Virus record (IMG/VR): IMGVR_UViG_3300010285_000002
Origin: a virus
Direction: 5' to 3' (one strand)
Length of the DNA stretch: 41,407 nt
Within the stretch, counting starts at the first letter, position 1. Every line of letters starts with the position of its first letter. The translations under genes were made by a program, and so were the position numbers. A model generated the notes under the pieces. The model ran no database searches. It had not been told where the DNA came from and was given only the letters and a program-made list of their open reading frames with translations. This document shows, piece after piece, positions 27,191 to 35,495 of this stretch.

Positions 27191-28602
27191 TTAGTAAACC
27201 TAAACCTTATGTTACTGTAGTAACGATACCCAAAAGTCAAATCAAAAATTTAGACATAGCAATGGCTACCGAACCTCTCGAACAAATGCAAAAGGCTTAC
27301 TCAAGATTGGGTAAGCCTGATTTCATGCTCAACGGCGGATTTTTTGATATGAGCAATGGGAAAACTGCCTCTAACCTCATAGACGATGGCGTTGTCAAAG
27401 GGAAAGGATGTAGCGATTTTGGGCTAATAGCAAACGGCAATACCGTGAAGTTCGGTAATATATCAGAAGCCAATTTTGATTTCATCGGTGGAACTCCGGC
27501 ACTGGTCAAGAACGGCAAAGTCGATATAGACCAAAATTATGGAGACAGCTTCAACAATGCTAGGCACCCTAGAAGCGCAGTAGGTGAAAACAAAGACAGC
27601 ATATTCTTAGTTGCTGTGGACGGCCGGAGAACAAATGCACCGGGAATGACATTGAATGAACTAGCCGAATTCATGATATCGATAGGCTGCACCAATGCAA
27701 TCAATCTTGATGGCGGAGGTTCTACTCGATTACTGCATAATGGCCAGCCTATTAACAACCCGACAGAGAATAGGGCAGTAGATAACTTCATATGTGTCTA
27801 CCTGAAAGGACAGACTAGTGGCAAAAAGAAGATATTCATTGACCCTGGACACGGTGGAAGTGATCCGGGGGCGCAAGCAAATGGATTGGTTGAAAAACAG
27901 CTAAATTTAACAGTAGCATTGAAGGTTAAAGAGCTGTTACTCGCTAGAGGCTTCGATGTTAAATTAAGTCGTGAATCAGATGTTTACCTGTCGCTCACCG
28001 AGCGTTGTAATCTAGCGAATAATTGGGGTGCAGATTATTTCATCAGCATTCACCACAACGCCGGCGGAGGCGATGGGTGGGAAATTATACATACAATTCA
28101 TACACATCAGTCAGAAGGTGACGAACTGGCAGAGGCAATTGGGAAGGAATTTACTAAGACTGGACAAAATAAGCGTCGGATTTTCAGTCAAGAATCCCAA
28201 AATTATCCCGGGCAGGATTACTTTACAGTAATTCAAAAAACTAAGATGCCAGCAATTATAACAGAATATGCTTTTCTTGACTCAGATGATTACAAGGCGG
28301 TTGATAGTATTGAAAAACTGTATAGAGAAGCACAAGCAATTGCAGACGGACTATGTGATTATCTTGGAATTGCTGTTACTGATACTACTAATGTTGGTCA
28401 AGAAGTAAAGGAGGTAAATACTGTGAGTTGGGAAGAGAAAAATAAAGAGTTTATAAAAATCGTGCAAAGAACAATAGGTGTTGATGTTGATGGACTTGCT
28501 GGTCCTAAAACAGTATCAGCTTTTGAAACTTACACTAAAAGTAAAGGAAACGAAAATGAGATTAAGCAAGCATGGAAAAAGTTAATGGAATTATTGAATT
28601 AA
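27187..28602 (+). CDS. three-domain endolysin: phosphodiester glycosidase (NAGPA/DUF2233)-like domain, N-acetylmuramoyl-L-alanine amidase (Amidase_3) and PG_binding_1
   Basis: N-terminal domain: NGGFFDM and RSAVGENKDSIFLVAVDGR...AINLDGGGST. Amidase: IFIDPGHGGSDPGA. C-terminus: IGVDVDGLAGPKT. Confidence 0.9.
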   Translation: MISKPKPYVTVVTIPKSQIKNLDIAMATEPLEQMQKAYSRLGKPDFMLNGGFFDMSNGKTASNLIDDGVVKGKGCSDFGLIANGNTVKFGNISEANFDFIGGTPALVKNGKVDIDQNYGDSFNNARHPRSAVGENKDSIFLVAVDGRRTNAPGMTLNELAEFMISIGCTNAINLDGGGSTRLLHNGQPINNPTENRAVDNFICVYLKGQTSGKKKIFIDPGHGGSDPGAQANGLVEKQLNLTVALKVKELLLARGFDVKLSRESDVYLSLTERCNLANNWGADYFISIHHNAGGGDGWEIIHTIHTHQSEGDELAEAIGKEFTKTGQNKRRIFSQESQNYPGQDYFTVIQKTKMPAIITEYAFLDSDDYKAVDSIEKLYREAQAIADGLCDYLGIAVTDTTNVGQEVKEVNTVSWEEKNKEFIKIVQRTIGVDVDGLAGPKTVSAFETYTKSKGNENEIKQAWKKLMELLN

Positions 28603-28606
28603 GCAA

Positions 28607-28636
28607 AGCCCCGGGTTAGTCTCGGGGCTATTTATT
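28607..28636 (+). terminator. intrinsic terminator after the endolysin gene
   Basis: Stem AGCCCCG/CGGGGCT with a 9-nt loop, followed by ATTTATT. Confidence 0.65.
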
Positions 28637-28663
28637 GACAATTGTTTCAACTCTTGTTATAAT
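28635..28663 (+). promoter_or_regulatory. perfect consensus sigma-A promoter (TTGACA-17-TATAAT)
   Basis: ttgaca lies at 28635-40 and tataat at 28658-63. No CDS lies downstream. Confidence 0.7.
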
Positions 28664-28666
28664 ATA

Positions 28667-28747
28667 ATCATCCACGGAAACAAGGATTGAAACGTTTTTA
28701 AATTTAAATTTTCTTGGAGAGCCCCTATCAAAGGGGCTTTTCTATTT
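28667..28747 (+). ncRNA. orphan small RNA with CRISPR-repeat-like segment ATCATCCACGGAAACAAGGATTGAAAC (candidate solitary repeat unit)
   Basis: The predicted transcript starts about 28670. The repeat-like 3' tag ATTGAAAC lies at 28686-28693. Terminator AGCCCCT/AGGGGCT plus TTTTCTATTT lies at 28720-28747. Confidence 0.45.
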
Positions 28748-28778
28748 CTGGCAGTTTTACCACTGCCAACCATGTTTT

Positions 28779-29333
28779 TTAGTGTAAACCAGGACATTCA
28801 ATCAATGTGGGTTTGCAATCTTGCTGAATTTCGTTCCAGCTTGTTTGTACTTCTTGAAGTGTTGCACCATCTTTGATTGCAAGACCTATAATTTCCCAAT
28901 CTTCTGTTTTCCAGTTGCCAGTCATACATGATTGCCAACGTCTTGCATATACATGTATCTTCAATACACCAACTTCTAATGTAAAAGTTTCATCGTACAT
29001 AAATGATATAATATCTCTATATACTTCGTTTTTAAAATTTGGGTCTTCCCAGACCCAAATTTTTTTCTTTGTAATTCCTTGTTCCCATAAAAATTTTCTA
29101 ATTGAATCTTTGGGTGGTATCGGGGGATTCCAAATTGCAACTTTTGGAATTCCTCCCCACATATCTAGGAAGATTCTTTGACCTTTTTCCACATCAAAAA
29201 TCTGTGGCTCTCCACGTTTCCATTCAATTTTTGCAGTACCTTTGCCATTTTCGTTTAAGTTAATAGTAACTCTAGTACTCATTCCGGCCATGTAAGTTTC
29301 TGTTTTTTCAATCAAAAATACTTTTTTAGACAT
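28779..29333 (-). CDS. hypothetical protein (about 184 aa), last gene of the cargo island
   Basis: ORF on the island strand. ATG 29333 lies 8 nt after TAGGAGGAA; ATG 29339 is too close to the RBS. Confidence 0.6.
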   Translation of the reverse strand: MSKKVFLIEKTETYMAGMSTRVTINLNENGKGTAKIEWKRGEPQIFDVEKGQRIFLDMWGGIPKVAIWNPPIPPKDSIRKFLWEQGITKKKIWVWEDPNFKNEVYRDIISFMYDETFTLEVGVLKIHVYARRWQSCMTGNWKTEDWEIIGLAIKDGATLQEVQTSWNEIQQDCKPTLIECPGLH

Positions 29334-29416
29334 ATCCATTTCCTCCTATAAATTTATTCCGGACTTGTGACCGAACTGTAGCATTACCGGCCCGAAGGCC
29401 GTCACTCTGCTTTTGC

Positions 29417-29920
29417 TTAATGCCAAGTATGATAAACAGTGTTGAATTTTTTTCCGTCTGGTTTAATTATTTCTCGCACTATGTCTTTACCGCACTCTTC
29501 GCAGTCTATGAGATACCTTCTTATCTCTTGTGCATAACCTGTTCTTTTTGCTTCGGACAAGGCTTCTTCTTCTGTTTTCTGTTTTCTTTGAACTGGCTTA
29601 ACCATATCGCTTAAAGGCATTTCAAATTTTTCTATTTCGTTTACATGAGAAAGTCTCTTGTTTTCAAATGTATTAAAGAACCATCCAGAGAGATTACCTA
29701 TACTATCGACTAATACAAGTTCTATTGCTTTCCTGATAATTAATTCATCTATTGATGATGTCGTTACTCCAAGAGCTTTAAATTCTTCAGTTTCAATAGC
29801 AAGAGTTGGAGTATAATACGGCTTTGCCCATCCTTCAGCTACAAATTCCACATTTCTTTTCCCTTCAATCAGTTCCTGAACAATACCATTAATTTTTTCC
29901 TTAGCCTCTTTACTTAACAT
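29417..29920 (-). CDS. hypothetical protein (167 aa) with C-terminal CEEC..H.WH motif
   Basis: Strong RBS GAGGGAGGA. First gene behind the second island promoter. Confidence 0.65.
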   Translation of the reverse strand: MLSKEAKEKINGIVQELIEGKRNVEFVAEGWAKPYYTPTLAIETEEFKALGVTTSSIDELIIRKAIELVLVDSIGNLSGWFFNTFENKRLSHVNEIEKFEMPLSDMVKPVQRKQKTEEEALSEAKRTGYAQEIRRYLIDCEECGKDIVREIIKPDGKKFNTVYHTWH

Positions 29921-29956: not shown

Positions 29957-29985
29957 ATTATACTATGACTGTCACTGACTGTCAA
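29957..29985 (-). promoter_or_regulatory. perfect consensus promoter (TTGACA-17-TATAAT) carrying two TGACAGTCA sites
   Basis: Minus-strand sequence is TTGACAgtcagtgacagtcatagTATAAT. The operator pair lies at 29966-29984. Confidence 0.7.
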
Positions 29986-30177: not shown

Positions 30178-30699
30178 TCACTCCTTTACCTTATATATCG
30201 CATCAGCACGGTTGACTAAATCATCAGTGCTGTAATTTCCAAATATCATATTGATTTTTTTGTGATATGCATCTGCGTCCCAAGGAATGCTTTTTTGATT
30301 TTCAATAGCAATCCGGAGCTTTTGTGAAAATTCAGTAGACAGTCCAGAATATCTTATTGCTTTTAAGATACCAGTGTTGGCATCTACAAGCAGAGTAGTC
30401 AATCCGAATCCTTTTCCTTCTGTAATTTCTTGAAATTCAAAAGGCTGTGACAAATGAATACTATATGGTGCATCCATCCATGGTATACCTTGAAATTTGG
30501 TCAGTATAAAAATAACTTCATCTTTTTGATAAAATCTAATTTCAAATTTTCCTTTTTTGACAGACTCTATTTCTGCGTCTGTAGGACTATTGAAAAAGAG
30601 GTAGAGTAGAGGACCAGCTTGCTGAAAGTCAAAAATCACTCCTTCTTGATATTTTGTTTTTCCTTCTTGTAGTAATTGTCCTACTTCAAGTTTCTGCAT
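30178..30699 (-). CDS. hypothetical protein (173 aa)
   Basis: ATG 30699 follows an AAAGGAGG RBS and overlaps the end of the ParB-like gene. Confidence 0.6.
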   Translation of the reverse strand: MQKLEVGQLLQEGKTKYQEGVIFDFQQAGPLLYLFFNSPTDAEIESVKKGKFEIRFYQKDEVIFILTKFQGIPWMDAPYSIHLSQPFEFQEITEGKGFGLTTLLVDANTGILKAIRYSGLSTEFSQKLRIAIENQKSIPWDADAYHKKINMIFGNYSTDDLVNRADAIYKVKE

Positions 30700-31345
30700 A
30701 AAATTCTTTCCTCCTTTGTTCGTATTCTTCCCAGCTCTTGCTAAATTCGTGATTTGCAAAAGCTTCTTTCAAACCTGTAATCTGTTTGAGCCTGATAACT
30801 TCATCAAGTTCCATTCCAAGTTTTTTGCAAATTTCTTGGTCACTCCATCCATATTTCGTAAGTTCCAAAACAATGTCGCTCATGTTTCGTATCTGATGTG
30901 TTCCTCTTGCTCTGTTGTGCCGGATAGTACTTCCCATACGCTCGTCAAGAGGCTTATTAATTGTTGATACTGGAAGCCTGCCAAAAGTTCTTTCGGCAAT
31001 ATCATTATGTTCTTTTACAATTCTGTTCCTGTGGAAGCCATCTACAACTTCCCGGGCTTCATTTTCTAACTTGTATGTAACTATTGGCATTGTATATCCA
31101 TCAAGCTTGATTGATTGATATAAGAGCTTCATTTCTGGATTTGCTACTTTATTTGGGTTGTATTCATTGGCCTGGACTTTATTAGCCGGCACCCAAATTA
31201 CGCAGTCAACTGGGTCCGAAATAGGGGAAACTTCATGCAAATTAATCTTTATTTCATTAATTGTGTCGATTTTTTCGTCGACATCCTCAATTTTCTCAAT
31301 TTCTTCTTTAAGCTTCATCAGTAATTTTGTTATTTCAGTTCTCAT
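30686..31345 (-). CDS. ParB/Srx N-terminal-domain protein (IbrB-like)
   Basis: Motifs YNPNKV...L..SI..DGYTMPIV and VVDGFHR. RBS is TAAGGAGGG. Confidence 0.85.
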   Translation of the reverse strand: MRTEITKLLMKLKEEIEKIEDVDEKIDTINEIKINLHEVSPISDPVDCVIWVPANKVQANEYNPNKVANPEMKLLYQSIKLDGYTMPIVTYKLENEAREVVDGFHRNRIVKEHNDIAERTFGRLPVSTINKPLDERMGSTIRHNRARGTHQIRNMSDIVLELTKYGWSDQEICKKLGMELDEVIRLKQITGLKEAFANHEFSKSWEEYEQRRKEFYAET

Positions 31346-31748
31346 TATTATCCCTCCTTAAATAATAATATCTACCGTTCTGGCGATAAACTTCAAATCC
31401 ACTATTAATCCAATACTTTTTTAGGTGTTCTTCTTTTGTAATAACTTCAATGGGTTTATTTTTATCTGAAGCATACTTAAACCTGAATTCATTAAGCTTC
31501 TTCCAAATACCTTTCTTTCGGTATGCTTCTTCTACATATGAATGTTCGAACATGATTTTATTTTTTAGTTCATGCAGCGAGGCAAAAGCGATTAAAGTAT
31601 CTTTTTCAAAAGCTAGGAACCAAACACTGCCTTCTTTGTTTGCAAGATAAGGCATTTCTTTTTGATATTTTGGTTCTGCAAAGTATTTCCCCATGTGAGA
31701 GTAGAATTTAGATTTGTCATAATTCCCTTCAAAAATTTCAATCTGCAA
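31335..31748 (-). CDS. GNAT-family acetyltransferase-like protein
   Basis: VEEAYRKKGIWKKL resembles an acetyl-CoA-binding motif. TTG 31748 follows a GAGGTGAG RBS, immediately after the upstream stop. The start is uncertain. Confidence 0.55.
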   Translation of the reverse strand: MQIEIFEGNYDKSKFYSHMGKYFAEPKYQKEMPYLANKEGSVWFLAFEKDTLIAFASLHELKNKIMFEHSYVEEAYRKKGIWKKLNEFRFKYASDKNKPIEVITKEEHLKKYWINSGFEVYRQNGRYYYLRRDNNEN

Positions 31749-33096
31749 ACAACTCACCTCTTTCCCAGCGTTCCATGTCCTTGTCGACTTTGCCATCGCC
31801 GACAATATGACTGTATTTTTCTTTGAGTTTATTAAGTTTCTCGACATCCTTTTTTGTAGCCGAGAAACTTAATCGCTTCATCCAAAAATCATTTTTTTCA
31901 AGTGCTCTTGCAATTCTTCGCCATGATGGGATATGTGTTTCTGCCTCAAGTTTTCTGTCTCCTTCGTCCGGTATCTGATGTACATCAATACCTCTATTGT
32001 CGTACCACCATTTCATGAAGGTTTTAATTTTCCCGTAATAATGCTGCTCCAATTCCGGAGCATATATCCGGATGCTCTCAAGTAGAAATATTGTGTATTG
32101 CTCCCAGGTCATATGTTCTGGTTTTTCTGTTTTTAGGTTGCCAAGCAGTGAAGTCCGGGCATATATATTACCAAAGTTTACGCCGTTGACCCGGTTTAAA
32201 ACTTTTTCCCATGTTTCGGGCTCCAAAGCTTTAAACTGGTCAAGGCCGTTTCGCTGGTCATCTCCATACGGCTGGCATAACCTCTGCTCGTGAATTGATA
32301 GCCCATTTTTGTACATCAACTCATATATTTCATTGAATTTCAAGTCCAATTTTGCGACGGCTCCCCATATATCCTCTGTACACCAATCGTAAAGAGGGAA
32401 GAAGTTGTAACAGTCAATTAATTTTTCCCTGATTTTAATTTGAGTGGTCCATCCATAATCTCGGTATCTTATTTTTGATTCGCTGACAATAGTCCTAAAC
32501 CTGTTCAAACTTTCGTTGCTTCTGATACCAATTCCAGCGGCAGACAGTCCTTTTTGTTCGCTGTACCATTTCGCGAACAATATGATAAATTCCTCGAACT
32601 CCATACTATGTCTAAACCAGTCCCAAGGGCAGTTTTTTTCGTTGATGACCCATTTATTTTTTGGCATATCCCGTACCCATTTATCTTTATCCTTCTTATC
32701 CCAGCAGGTCCATTTGGGTTGTAAAATGGACACCGCGTTTCTTAGGGAAAGGGGGAGACATACCCAATAAACCCGTTCTATAACATCTTGGCAATCTTCC
32801 AACAATTCTTCGACATGCTTAATTGTTGCCTTGTACTGTGCTTCAAGATCTATGTATAGCATGTCAATTTTCTTTTTGTATTCCCTGGCTTTTTGCGCAG
32901 CTAATTGGAGCATAACGCTGCTATCCTTACCTCCAGAAATAGAAAAGTATATATTGTCAAAATCCCTAAATATAATGTCATACCTTTCCATAGCAGCTTC
33001 AAACACATTTTTGTTGCTGTATATCTTCGACACCGTCAATCCACCTCCCAATATCTTTTTTGTTTTGAGTTTTTGTAATGTAATATTTGAAAGCAT
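31738..33096 (-). CDS. PAPS-reductase-family ATP pyrophosphatase with long C-terminal extension (IbrA/DUF3440-like)
   Basis: YFSISGGKDSSVML PP-loop motif. About 450 aa. Adjacent to the ParB-like gene, as in IbrAB pairs. ATG 33096 follows GAAAAGAAGG. Confidence 0.85.
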   Translation of the reverse strand: MLSNITLQKLKTKKILGGGLTVSKIYSNKNVFEAAMERYDIIFRDFDNIYFSISGGKDSSVMLQLAAQKAREYKKKIDMLYIDLEAQYKATIKHVEELLEDCQDVIERVYWVCLPLSLRNAVSILQPKWTCWDKKDKDKWVRDMPKNKWVINEKNCPWDWFRHSMEFEEFIILFAKWYSEQKGLSAAGIGIRSNESLNRFRTIVSESKIRYRDYGWTTQIKIREKLIDCYNFFPLYDWCTEDIWGAVAKLDLKFNEIYELMYKNGLSIHEQRLCQPYGDDQRNGLDQFKALEPETWEKVLNRVNGVNFGNIYARTSLLGNLKTEKPEHMTWEQYTIFLLESIRIYAPELEQHYYGKIKTFMKWWYDNRGIDVHQIPDEGDRKLEAETHIPSWRRIARALEKNDFWMKRLSFSATKKDVEKLNKLKEKYSHIVGDGKVDKDMERWERGELFAD

Positions 33097-34384
33097 CAGA
33101 AAGACCTTCTTTTCTTTCAAGACACTTCAAAATTCTTTCGTCTAAAGTACCGTCTGCAACAATATCAATTATATGTACATTATTATTTTGTCCTATACGA
33201 TGCAGCCGATCCTCACTTTGTGAACGTGTTGCCCAATCCCAATCATTATTATAATAAATTGCATAATTGCAAAATTGGAGGTTGAGGCCATAACTAGCAC
33301 ATGATTTATTTGCTATAAGATATTTTTTGTTATTAGCAAATAAATCTGTATTTATATCCCTTTGTTTCTTTGTAATTTCGCCGTAGAAGCATATGGCATC
33401 ATTACCTAGTATATTAGATATGTTTTCTATTTCATGTGTGTATTTGCACCAAATAACCACTTTGTCGTCGATTCTTTCTAATAAGCTTAATAGTATTTGG
33501 ATTCTTGGATTATCTTTTGGTTTCTCGAAAAATGGTACAGTACGAATAGGTTCATCATACTTTGACACAATCCTATTTCCTGTAAGTACATGTTGCAAAG
33601 CTGTAAATAATCTGTATATCGTATGAGGTTCAAACTCATCAAGCTGTAGCAAAAATTCTTCTTTGACTTTTTTATAATGCCAATATTGTTCATCTGTTAA
33701 GTCGAAATATTTCTTGCTATAAGTTTTTTCAGGAAGTTGCAGACATTCTGACTTTTTTATTTGATAGGTATATGGCGAGATTTTTCTCACCAAGTAGTCA
33801 GTATTCAAGCAACGATTAATTTTACCTGGAACACGTTCATCGTATTCCAGGTGATTTGCAGCAAAACTCCAAAAAGACTTATAACCAAGTATACGCCAAT
33901 CAAGTATATACCATTGTGAGAATAGGTCTTTTTCGCATCTGGACACTGGTGTACCATTCAGTATAAGTTTATATTGGCAATGTTCAGCAAGTCTTTCAAT
34001 GTTTATTGTACGTTTCGCCCTGTGGTTTTTCACAAGGTTAGATTCATCCACAATAAGAAAGACCTTATTATTTTTCACATATTCAAGTAACTCACAATTA
34101 AGTCTTATACTGCTTGACAGGCTTTCGATGCCTTCTATACGAAAGTATGAAAAATCTCCATCTATGTGTTTCTGCAATTCCTTGCGAATAGTTGTTTTTA
34201 CACTGCAAGGACATAGCCATAACACTTTATTTACTTTTCCGACGACAAGACGGCGGTAAATAAGTTCCAGTGCCGTCCTTGTCTTGCCTGTGCCCATTTC
34301 CATGTAAAGTGCTCCAACTTTGATTTGTTGGAGCTTTTCTACCGCTGGAATTTGATGGGGGAGGAGATTAGTCTTTAAGATCAT
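32999..34384 (-). CDS. SNF2-family helicase/translocase
   Basis: Motifs LLPHQ, MEMGTGKTRT (motif I), VDESNLVKN (motif II) and SQSEDRLHRIGQ (motif VI). Confidence 0.9.
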   Translation of the reverse strand: MILKTNLLPHQIPAVEKLQQIKVGALYMEMGTGKTRTALELIYRRLVVGKVNKVLWLCPCSVKTTIRKELQKHIDGDFSYFRIEGIESLSSSIRLNCELLEYVKNNKVFLIVDESNLVKNHRAKRTINIERLAEHCQYKLILNGTPVSRCEKDLFSQWYILDWRILGYKSFWSFAANHLEYDERVPGKINRCLNTDYLVRKISPYTYQIKKSECLQLPEKTYSKKYFDLTDEQYWHYKKVKEEFLLQLDEFEPHTIYRLFTALQHVLTGNRIVSKYDEPIRTVPFFEKPKDNPRIQILLSLLERIDDKVVIWCKYTHEIENISNILGNDAICFYGEITKKQRDINTDLFANNKKYLIANKSCASYGLNLQFCNYAIYYNNDWDWATRSQSEDRLHRIGQNNNVHIIDIVADGTLDERILKCLERKEGLSDAFKYYITKTQNKKDIGRWIDGVEDIQQQKCV

Positions 34385-35495
34385 CAAGTATCTCCTCCGA
34401 TGATTCTAATATTTTTTTCAAGCCATCGACTGGCTTTTCTTCTTTTTTTGAAGCAGGTGTAACAACAGTTACATCCTGCAAGCTTGCTTTGTACTGTTCA
34501 ATAAGCTCTTTTGCGGAATCTGAAAATGCAAAGCCGTATAGATTAGCAAAATCTTCTACCTCCTGCCAATAGTTGACCTTTACAACCATACTGCCATCGT
34601 GCCATTTGGCAGAAGGTAACTTTTTGGCAACTTTATATAAATCATCGTTATAACCTTCCCATGATATAGCCAATTTCTCTTTGTGTTCTTCTTTTGTACA
34701 TGCCTTTATCCAACGTTTTTGTTCCGGATTGTAGTTGCCGGAAATAGCATTTTGAAGTATACTATTATCGGTAATCATTATAGGGAATCCTGCATTAAGC
34801 AGCTTGTTTCCCAACTCAGCGGCTCTGTCCTCAGCAGGGCCGTTAAACTTATTAATTTCTCTGTACCAATAACCATCTCCCCAAGTATAGCCAAGGGATT
34901 TGACTATTTTGCGAAAGTTTTCGTTTTTTGAGAAAGTAACAGTGATTTTTGTATCACTGACTTTTATTTCAGCTGGTTCTTTATATCCACAGTTTTCAGG
35001 GTAAACTGTGGAATCTTTTTTGATATCTTCTAAAATTGGAGCAATCTCCTGATCTTTTTTCCACATTCTAATCTCTTTCAACTTCTCCTCCAGCCAAAAT
35101 AGTATTCCATATGATCTATTATCTATGAACCAGCTTGCTTTTTTTTGGCTCATGACATAGTCAAGAATATCTTGTTTTTCTTTTTTATTGGATCCAATTC
35201 GAAATAAATCTTCAGATTCTAATCTATCAATCTTATCTATCATTTCTTGCCTGAGCGTAACAGCCCAAGCAATTTGTTTTTCACTCCCTTCGAGTTCTGG
35301 GAGTTCCATCTTCTTAGCTTTTTCTAAAGCTTCTATTCTGGCTTTTTCTCTTTCTTCAGTTCTTTTCTTTTCAAAACATTCCGGGCACAATCCTCGAAAG
35401 TGTGCATCAGCTTTCCATTGTCTATGTTTCATAGGTCCTATTATATTTGTACGGCCTTCATGACCACAACTATATGTACCGTAATACCATGCCAT
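34368..35495 (-). CDS. hypothetical 375-aa protein with N-terminal zinc ribbon (CGH...CPEC), coupled to the SNF2 helicase
   Basis: Motifs YGTYSCGHEG...GLCPECFEKK and LEGSEKQIAWA. It overlaps the SNF2 start by about 17 nt. Confidence 0.7.
   Translation of the reverse strand: MAWYYGTYSCGHEGRTNIIGPMKHRQWKADAHFRGLCPECFEKKRTEEREKARIEALEKAKKMELPELEGSEKQIAWAVTLRQEMIDKIDRLESEDLFRIGSNKKEKQDILDYVMSQKKASWFIDNRSYGILFWLEEKLKEIRMWKKDQEIAPILEDIKKDSTVYPENCGYKEPAEIKVSDTKITVTFSKNENFRKIVKSLGYTWGDGYWYREINKFNGPAEDRAAELGNKLLNAGFPIMITDNSILQNAISGNYNPEQKRWIKACTKEEHKEKLAISWEGYNDDLYKVAKKLPSAKWHDGSMVVKVNYWQEVEDFANLYGFAFSDSAKELIEQYKASLQDVTVVTPASKKEEKPVDGLKKILESSEEILDDLKD

Follow-up and report, generated by a model that had tools for sequence, protein, structure and literature searches.

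A candidate type I-B CRISPR RNA mimic in a mobile cassette of a temperate phage

Introduction

What might a phage do with a perfect consensus promoter that has no open reading frame (ORF) behind it, only a fragment resembling a CRISPR repeat and a terminator? The question is raised by a locus in the IMG/VR virus record IMGVR_UViG_3300010285_000002, a stretch of DNA of 41,407 nucleotides (nt) that was analysed at full length and is called the window here. An earlier note, made from the letters of this DNA, had picked out positions 28607-28771 as a candidate solitary repeat unit (SRU) or RNA anti-CRISPR (Racr). The element in question is a cassette at 28600-28747. It would encode a phage-made mimic of a type I-B CRISPR RNA (crRNA), belonging to the SRU/Racr-Cracr class and occupying Cas6b and Cascade, a reading to which we give about an even chance. 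The observations behind it are the promoter-repeat-terminator anatomy of the cassette, the origin of its repeat, the link between the repeat family and type I-B cas genes, and the cassette's mobility and its selective conservation.

Type I-B systems are common in Clostridia and archaea, and genome editing in Acetivibrio thermocellus makes use of one. Bioinformatic work had predicted solitary repeat units in viruses before the Racr paper appeared. These units act as RNA anti-CRISPRs (Camara-Wilpert et al. 2023, PMC10651486). Racrs have been functionally tested, and found to work, for types I-C, I-E, I-F and V-A, while those of type I-B are bioinformatic candidates only (PMC10651486).

A compact RNA gene behind a consensus promoter

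The cassette (28600-28747, + strand) consists of a hairpin, a promoter, a repeat-derived RNA gene and a second hairpin, and corresponds to the segment held in common with another phage contig, L054. It is intergenic, with the endolysin stop at 28602 on one side and a convergent ORF ending at 28779 on the other. Hairpin 1 (AGCCCCGGG-TTAGT-CTCGGGGCT, 28607-28629) is terminator-like, follows the endolysin stop codon and is a recurrent junction element. Next comes a sigma-70-type promoter (28635-28663, +) made up of TTGACA (28635-40), a 17-nt spacer, TG and TATAAT (28658-63). It scores 12/12, and between 28603 and 28771 no + strand ORF of at least 25 amino acids (aa) lies behind it, so the description of an orphan consensus promoter was sound. 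A micro-ORF reading, for which UUG-AAA-CGU-UUU-UAA is the sole candidate, was rejected.

The repeat-derived segment, labelled psiR, occupies 28668-28693 (+). Alignments with the Rfam family CRISPR-DR7 and with array repeats identify it as the 26 nt at the 3′ end of a type I-B repeat of 37 nt, with a predicted mini-hairpin (ATCC/GGAT). It closes with the 8-nt crRNA 5′ handle ATTGAAAC (28686-28693, +), which is the same in 5/5 cassette copies. A spacer-like segment of 26 nt, psiS (GTTTTTAAATTTAAATTTTCTTGGAG, 28694-28719, +), follows; it is A/T-rich and unique in the window. The part of psiS that precedes hairpin 2 measures 22-26 nt and is predicted to be unstructured and A/U-rich. Hairpin 2 and its T-tract (28716-28747, +; stem 28716-28742) are the predicted intrinsic terminator of the small RNA, as strong as had been supposed.

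Promoter and terminator geometry predict a primary transcript from 28670 to ~28746 (+). The start near 28670 proposed in the earlier note is retained, and the length of ~80 nt is corrected to ~75-77 nt. The predicted transcript folds with -20.7 kcal/mol (z = -2.6). Its start lies within a base or two of the onset of repeat similarity, and the 5′ 12 nt of the repeat are replaced in the cassette by the -10 box. With a promoter, no ORF and a strong terminator, 28600-28747 has the makings of a compact RNA gene whose transcription is predicted.

The promoter is one of four perfect TTGACA-17-TATAAT promoters in the 41-kb window, against 0.085 expected from shuffles. They start at 28635 (+), 29985 (-), 35749 (-) and 37924 (+), and 4/4 stand in intergenic, regulatory-looking places. 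From their number and siting, consensus promoters are clearly in use by this phage, and the four seem to mark its early, lysogenic or accessory transcription units.

Two further features of the RNA gene were noticed. In both known types of the cassette, pairing is possible between the A-rich loop of psiR and the 3′ part of psiS, which is U-rich (28672-28680 with 28709-28717 in the window; CCACGGAAA/UUUUCUUGG there and GGAAAAUA/UAUUUUUU in type B, described below), giving an alternative fold that encloses the handle through a weak, AU-rich helix. A second unit on the minus strand (AACAAGAGTTGAAAC, followed by 14 nt and hairpin 1) was considered and dismissed, having no credible minus-strand promoter and an Rfam score of 16.4 bits (E ~1).

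The tail of a type I-B repeat

The Rfam family CRISPR-DR7 aligns over all 37 nt to 28657-28693, with every position matching from the predicted stem (AUCC...GGAU) to the end and none of the first 12 doing so; the score is 27.6 bits, which by itself, on a whole-window basis, would not be significant. Stronger evidence comes from real arrays. A genome scan for CCACGRAAACAAGGATTGAAAC retrieved 43 loci of true arrays, and the last 26 nt of one array repeat (L143, CTTTCAGAGCGACATCCACGAAAACAAGGATTGAAAC) are identical to the L054 unit at 26/26 positions and to the window unit at 24/26. The tag is in crRNA-coding orientation relative to the cassette promoter, and what had looked repeat-like is the genuine tail of a CRISPR repeat. 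In a set of 31 distinct array repeats, the 5′ third varies and the 3′ ~23 nt hardly do; for the last 16 nt this constancy is built in, since the set was gathered by tail match. The phage unit keeps the invariant part: from its predicted start, the cassette RNA carries the 24-26 conserved nt at the 3′ end of the 37-nt ...AAACAAGGATTGAAAC repeat family, with the handle complete.

Arrays of this family adjoin type I-B cas genes. Cas7/Csh2 (TIGR02590) is found beside one of them at 282.8 bits, above the cut-off (L157), and again in L156, and Cas3, Cas4 and Cas1 occur in L154, L156, L124 and L128. The natural arrays have periods of 72-75 nt, which leaves spacers of ~35-38 nt. Clostridium thermocellum, a Bacillota species, has the family as well. 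The 37-nt repeat that the earlier note named for it is on record as GTTGAAGTGGTACTTCCAGTAAAACAAGGATTGAAAC; its type is listed as I-B and its handles as 8 and 2-6 nt long (CRISPRTarget table; PMC3737339 Table 1). The Cas6b of this species (Cthe_3205) is tied to 37-nt repeats, which are cleaved 29+8 to give the 5′ tag AUUGAAAC and trimmed 3′ ends (Richter et al., PMC3479195).

The unit stands alone. There is no direct repeat copy within 100 bp or elsewhere in the window, which agrees with its description as a solitary unit; the only nearby likeness is an inverted 14-nt copy of the tail. A CRISPR array or mini-array has at least two direct repeats and a spacer, and here there is a single unit. 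Its place, intergenic and in a virus, is that which SRUFinder looks for in viruses and plasmids. A full match in SRUFinder takes at least 90% identity and at least 90% coverage; the unit has an identity of 24/26 (92%) and a coverage of 26/37 (70%), and is classed as a partial match and not as an SRU because the 5′ part of the repeat is replaced by the -10 box.

Other solitary units of this kind were seen. About 40 IMG/VR viral contigs (L001-L119) carry solitary ...TCCAnnnAAACAAGGATTGAAAC units, for example L016/L094, L079, L076, L099 and L107, with recognisable promoters and terminators in a few of them (L016/L094, L079). In L107 a unit is combined with an inverted copy of the tail and with another degenerate repeat, which is different and ends in ATGATTGAAAC; L099 has a two-unit mini-array with a AAATAAGG variant.

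Presence, absence and divergence of the cassette

Comparison of the window with L054 by BLASTN and TBLASTX finds 28600-28747 as the only shared DNA (150 nt, 96% identity). In L054, too, the unit comes directly 3′ of an endolysin gene, although the two endolysins are unrelated; the convergent gene it faces is a different one. The same phage with an identical cassette was met in several sequencing runs. Assemblies containing this phage are ERZ651804, SRR21993101, SRR21993102, SRR21993105, SRR6179361, ERZ27257473 and IMG 3300010287, 3300038738 and 3300010340. Close relatives (L292-L296, 92% nt identity up to 28618) are without the cassette and have a single terminator followed by other genes; further phages with related endolysins likewise do without it. 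Intermediate states form a nested series, with hairpin 1 alone in L303, and in L300 hairpin 1 plus the next 25 nt, which contain the first 11 nt of the left arm of the inverted repeat in addition to the -35 box and include neither -10 box nor repeat unit.

A diverged form of the cassette, type B, was found by tracing homologues of the 167-aa ORF at 29417..29920. It is present in L304, L305 and L307 and in the IMG/VR contigs L308 and L309, with 78-82% identity to the window (L304, L308, L309) and in different flanks, next to an endolysin with Amidase_2 and SLH domains or to other sequence. The recurrence in L054 and in the type B contigs bears out the expectation that other phages would hold the same unit. 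In its two types the cassette occurs in at least four otherwise different phage contexts, just downstream of lysis genes, and judging from these comparisons it is a mobile module. Wider searches returned little: the exact 24-mer of the window unit has no match in IMG/VR, promoter and terminator anchors recover L054 as the only match there, GenBank phages and PLSDB plasmids hold nothing significant for the unit, and the genome scan found no prophage copy of it. A metagenome scan with the A/T-rich psiS pattern gave at least 120 chance matches, and none of those listed has a repeat tail or an extended match.

Hairpin 1 has a distribution of its own. As AAAGCCCCGGGTTAGTCTCGGGGCT it recurs alone after the endolysin genes of relatives (L303 2018-2042, L300 2882-2931, L292 ~2313-2345), and the sequence to its right differs among them, so that it looks like a shared recombination junction for cargo past the lysis genes. 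An A-tract precedes it on the 5′ side in several relatives, where it would on that account terminate leftward transcription better than endolysin transcription. The minus strand of L300 (2932-3022) has a strong ribosome-binding site and a 15-codon ORF (MPIKKGLRTHSKPQK) whose stop codon overlaps TAGAGTTGAAAC; hairpin 1 would be its terminator.

The two types differ unevenly along the cassette. Between type A (the window) and type B (L304) the -35 box is identical (6/6), the promoter spacer is 17 nt in both, the TGn of the extended -10 is kept with TATAAT against TAAACT as the hexamer, and the ATAATC before the start site is unchanged (6/6). In the RNA, psiR (28670-93) agrees at 21/24 positions and the 8-nt handle at 8/8. 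The core stems of both hairpins are invariant, those of hairpin 1 being the same in 5/5 copies; in the lower stem of hairpin 2 two pairs change on both sides, from G-U to U-A, and its loop has three variants within type B. For psiS the agreement falls to 17/26 (65%); its length (26/27/26), its first 7 nt (GTTTTTA) and a TTTTCT block are retained. An indel separates the psiS of the window from that of L054, and type B copies with different hairpin-2 loops have the same psiS. Such a pattern is what one would expect of a transcribed, structured and functional RNA gene, with the repeat part and the terminator under constraint and psiS constrained only loosely or in a type-specific way.

A proposed type I-B crRNA mimic

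The window is the ~41-kb genome of a temperate siphovirus-like phage from a metagenome contig (ENA ERZ651804 NODE_552). It has genes for terminase, portal, capsid, tail, holin/endolysin and tyrosine integrase and a repressor/Cro-like switch, and it contains no cas genes and neither tRNA nor tmRNA genes. The large terminase is 40-44% identical in aa to those of Geobacillus and Bacillus phages, the nearest cultured relatives, and its 90% cluster takes in a 'Bacillota bacterium' metagenome-assembled genome. By terminase likeness and cluster membership the host is probably a member of the Bacillota.

In such a host the cassette could act as follows. RNA polymerase of the host would start at ~28670, where the similarity to the CRISPR repeat begins, and host Cas6b would cut 8 nt before the repeat end, a site predicted between 28685 and 28686. 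The product, whose sequence can be read from the cassette, would consist of AUUGAAAC, a stretch of 22-26 A/U-rich and unstructured nt, and finally the terminator hairpin. This handle-bearing RNA would load into Cas5/Cas7/Cas8b complexes and, as the output of a consensus promoter, would compete with the phage-targeting crRNAs of the host for Cas6b and Cascade subunits, which would lower CRISPR interference against the phage or prophage. Since the transcript starts at the repeat core, the active species would be the downstream, crRNA-like RNA. In type I-B, Cas6b serves only for crRNA maturation, and the 3′ handle and Cas6b are dispensable for interference (PMC4326828). A 7-8-nt 5′ handle and a spacer suffice for Cascade function (PMC4326828), and the phage RNA should load because no more than these is needed. 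Expression of a Racr or of a non-targeting crRNA relieves interference by competition in a dose-dependent way (PMC10651486), and the perfect consensus promoter fits the need for high dosage. The mimic RNA might also guide Cascade.

Several findings weigh against this reading. The CRISPR-DR7 score of the window (27.6 bits) is below the gathering score of 37, as is that of the L304 unit (21.9 bits), a shortfall that arises because the 5′ 12 nt are a -10 box. The cassette holds only 26/37 nt of the repeat, a truncated form that Cas6b would have to recognise. The genome scan found no Bacillota array with the same loop, the loop variant belonging mostly to methanogen arrays and to those of a few non-Bacillota bacteria. 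The neighbouring genes are ORFans with no anti-CRISPR protein (Acr) signature. The partial conservation of psiS, in its first 7 nt and its length, hints at more than a passive decoy, and the conserved inverted copy of the tail within the promoter is not explained by a crRNA mimic.

Alternative explanations

The inverted copy (GTTTCAACTCTTGT, 28644-28657, +) was recorded in the earlier note as matching 12 of 14 positions of the repeat tail, and it is indeed 12/14 complementary to 28680-28693. In both types this left arm takes up positions 4-17 of the promoter spacer, and its complementarity to the repeat tail is kept. As RNA the arms of the window would form 12 Watson-Crick pairs and 1 G-U of 14; those of type B, with GTTTCAATCCCTGC as left arm, would form 11 and 1 G-U, and GTTTCAATCC/GGATTGAAAC match at 10/10. 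The left arm lies outside the transcript of the cassette promoter. In a read-through RNA the predicted fold (-30.2 kcal/mol, z = -4.7) pairs the two arms, which would mask the handle. No arm pair has changed on both sides between types A and B, the first 11 nt of the left arm are present in L300, which has no RNA gene, and the tail motif is not found again elsewhere in the phage, 28644-57 being the only match with at most 2 mismatches near the unit. The left arm may serve as an operator or may mask antisense or read-through transcripts; it may also be a by-product of the origin of the cassette. The caveat that the pair might be a protein operator is upheld in so far as the partner is conserved in type B, and weakened by the lack of compensatory change and by the 11 of its 14 nt that stand in L300. 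The rough symmetry remarked on for the locus is real and is due only to two similar GC hairpins and the 14-nt arms; palindromy of the whole cassette, tried as a feature in itself, is significant only through these and was set aside. In the unrelated IMG/VR unit L107, too, a copy of the tail stands inverted just 5′ of the repeat, a hint that the feature recurs.

The main rival to a decoy is a Cracr-type regulator, which we consider to have a real though minor chance. Biogenesis would be the same; psiS would pair through its ~9-14 nt proximal to the protospacer-adjacent motif (PAM) with a host promoter, for instance that of the cas operon or of a CRISPR-guarding toxin such as creT, which Cascade would then repress, silencing immunity or its back-up; competition would be an added effect. 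A single psiR (28668-93) followed by a short psiS (28694-28719), on a mobile element and outside cas loci, is the siting of a Cracr, and with its rho-independent terminator the architecture equals that of CracrVA1. The 22-26 nt of psiS before the hairpin lie in the range of regulatory crRNA-like RNAs (17-27 nt), compared with ~35-38 nt for spacers in the arrays, and psiS is promoter-like in being A/T-rich. Type I-B systems use CreA/CreR (10.1101/2023.03.10.532045), and I-B Cracr candidates have been reported (10.1101/2024.10.29.618823). The seed region is where the evidence divides. The first 9-14 nt of psiS read GTTTTTAAATTTAA in type A and GTTTTTATCAATAT in type B; the first 7 nt and the length are kept between the types with the rest diverged, and psiS is constant within type B, but 7 conserved nt are fewer than the 9 or more used to define Cracrs, and seed searches in the I-B loci of unrelated hosts found no psiS match. 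Another rival is a one-spacer guide, by which the RNA would turn the I-B Cascade of the host on a competitor, whether phage or plasmid, with the matching protospacer, as virus-borne mini-arrays do. The predicted product would lack none of the features of a minimal I-B crRNA, and mini-arrays of the ...AAACAAGGATTGAAAC family do occur in viral contigs (L010, L052, L087, L090). Yet searches with a 17-mer and a 26-mer from the 3′ half of psiS and the hairpin found no protospacer in 2.9 million IMG/VR contigs, GenBank phages, plasmids and the window itself gave none either, and one chance match only, in a coding region (L284), came to light. The would-be 36-nt spacer takes in the terminator hairpin, and psiS has an indel between the window and L054 and 65% identity between the types. 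We regard this explanation as very improbable.

A further explanation lies outside CRISPR biology; in it the likeness to a repeat is a relic and the unit is either a cis-antisense small RNA over the 3′ untranslated region of the neighbouring accessory operon or a promoter under a protein that binds the two 14-nt arms. The arms do flank the -10 box and the start site, their complementarity persists in the diverged type, and the read-through fold pairs them. Hairpin 2 is without a T-tract on the minus strand, hairpin 1 has one in relatives, and leftward transcripts probably cross the unit in antisense; the unit also travels with the operon of the 167-aa ORF and a twister ribozyme in two cassette contexts. 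However, a relic would not be expected to match a repeat at 26/26 in the right orientation, to keep its handle invariant and to have its start site at the boundary of the repeat, and in L054 the cassette lies beside unrelated convergent genes. An operator would be repeated elsewhere in the phage and the motif is not; the arm pairs show no compensatory change; and most of the left arm is found in L300 without the right arm. On this balance a non-CRISPR element seems improbable. That the repeat fragment serves instead as homology for integration into, or exchange with, host CRISPR arrays is scarcely credible: the homology is only 26 nt, a dedicated perfect promoter and terminator would be needless, and the phage has its own tyrosine integrase.

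A fuller version of the crRNA-mimic reading would account for both the arms and the short guide, and we hold it to be doubtful. The cassette would then be a portable 'single-guide' type I-B anti-CRISPR, composed of a truncated, promoter-fused repeat, a short guide and a terminator with no second repeat. Its RNA would load a complete Cascade and redirect it, Cracr-like, to a host promoter. The inverted handle copy would be a gate, masking the handle in read-through RNA or acting as an operator, and the module would spread between unrelated phages by recombination at the shared terminator hairpin.

Surroundings of the cassette

Convergent to the cassette is an accessory (moron) operon, in order a 167-aa ORF (29417..29920), a twister ribozyme and a 186-aa ORF (28779..29339). 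Neither ORF has a match in Pfam, PHROG or the PDB, and each has a handful of homologues only. The operon has the perfect consensus promoter at 29985 (-). Between the two ORFans, ~600 nt from the cassette, the type-P5 twister ribozyme (29359-29411, -) scores 56.3 bits against a gathering score of 37.6. It is kept in type B phages in the same place after the 167-aa homologue (L304 4511-4565, +, 62.8 bits), and the downstream gene there differs. An extra hairpin (28749-28768, TGGCAG-TTTTAC-CACTGCCA) lies between the right end of the cassette and the stop codon of the 186-aa ORF and falls outside the segment shared with L054. Inside the 186-aa ORF, at 29028-29063 (+), is a 9-nt match to the start of psiS (GTTTTTAAA) with TTC before it and a 13-bp hairpin and a T-run after it; the frequency of such 9-mer matches is about that expected by chance. 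Further along, a leftward operon (30686-35495, -) encodes a ParB-like protein, a GNAT acetyltransferase, a PAPS-reductase/DUF3440 protein and an SNF2-family helicase, with an IbrA/IbrB-like pairing. This block, too, is kept in type B phages (L304), and it may be a DNA-modification or anti-defence module.

Significance and comparison with known systems

The cassette offers a compact I-B candidate of ~150 bp with clear boundaries, two natural types and presence/absence variants for comparison. If it works as proposed, repeat mimics can act through complete but useless or re-aimed complexes, and a small genetic off-switch for I-B tools would be at hand. Searches for repeat mimics that demand near-full coverage of the repeat would miss such units.

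Among described systems, Racrs and SRUs share with the cassette their phage-borne, intergenic position, a solitary repeat mimic, a strong promoter of its own and a proposed sequestration of Cas proteins (PMC10651486). Full-length solitary units of the ...AAACAAGGATTGAAAC family, typed I-B, are among the SRUFinder-derived IMG/VR Racr candidates in the accessible part of that paper's list, and contig 3300010287 is not among the supplement entries in the same part. The cassette differs in having the 3′ 70% of the repeat only. The active species of RacrIF1 is the RNA upstream of the Cas6f cut, which has no 5′ handle and carries a Cas7 filament (PMC10651486); this mechanism cannot apply to the cassette, because upstream of the repeat core there is practically no RNA.

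Among described architectures, that of CracrVA1 comes closest. This RNA is from an uncultured phage, and in it a rho-independent terminator follows a single degenerate repeat and a short spacer-like segment (Liu et al., bioRxiv 10.1101/2024.10.29.618823). Cracrs resemble the cassette further in that their spacer-like segment is shorter than canonical spacers, as psiS is. CracrVA1, however, serves Cas12a (type V-A), and type I Cracrs are derived from CreA/CreR mini-arrays and are defined by a match of at least 9 PAM-proximal nt to a cas or creT promoter of the host, beside a PAM. The CreA/CreR RNAs of I-B hosts combine a degenerate repeat with a short spacer, load I-B Cascade and have non-cleaving functions (bioRxiv 10.1101/2023.03.10.532045). 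They lie inside cas loci between two flanking degenerate repeats, whereas the cassette is in a phage and has one truncated repeat and a terminator.

The icrRNA design shows that a 5′ handle and a spacer without a 3′ handle make a functional I-B guide (Maier et al. 2015, PMC4326828), which is the form predicted for the processed phage RNA. That RNA is engineered and is matured by tRNA-processing enzymes, whereas the phage RNA would need Cas6b or another nuclease to produce the 8-nt handle. Virus-borne mini-arrays are a further instance of viruses that carry repeats of the host CRISPR family, but they have at least two repeats and spacers that match competitors, where the cassette has one truncated repeat and no target detected in the collections searched. 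Solitary repeat units of this I-B-typed family in viruses are already catalogued. Three features of the cassette deserve notice: its truncated, promoter-fused repeat, its predicted handle-bearing product and its form as a well-delimited mobile module.

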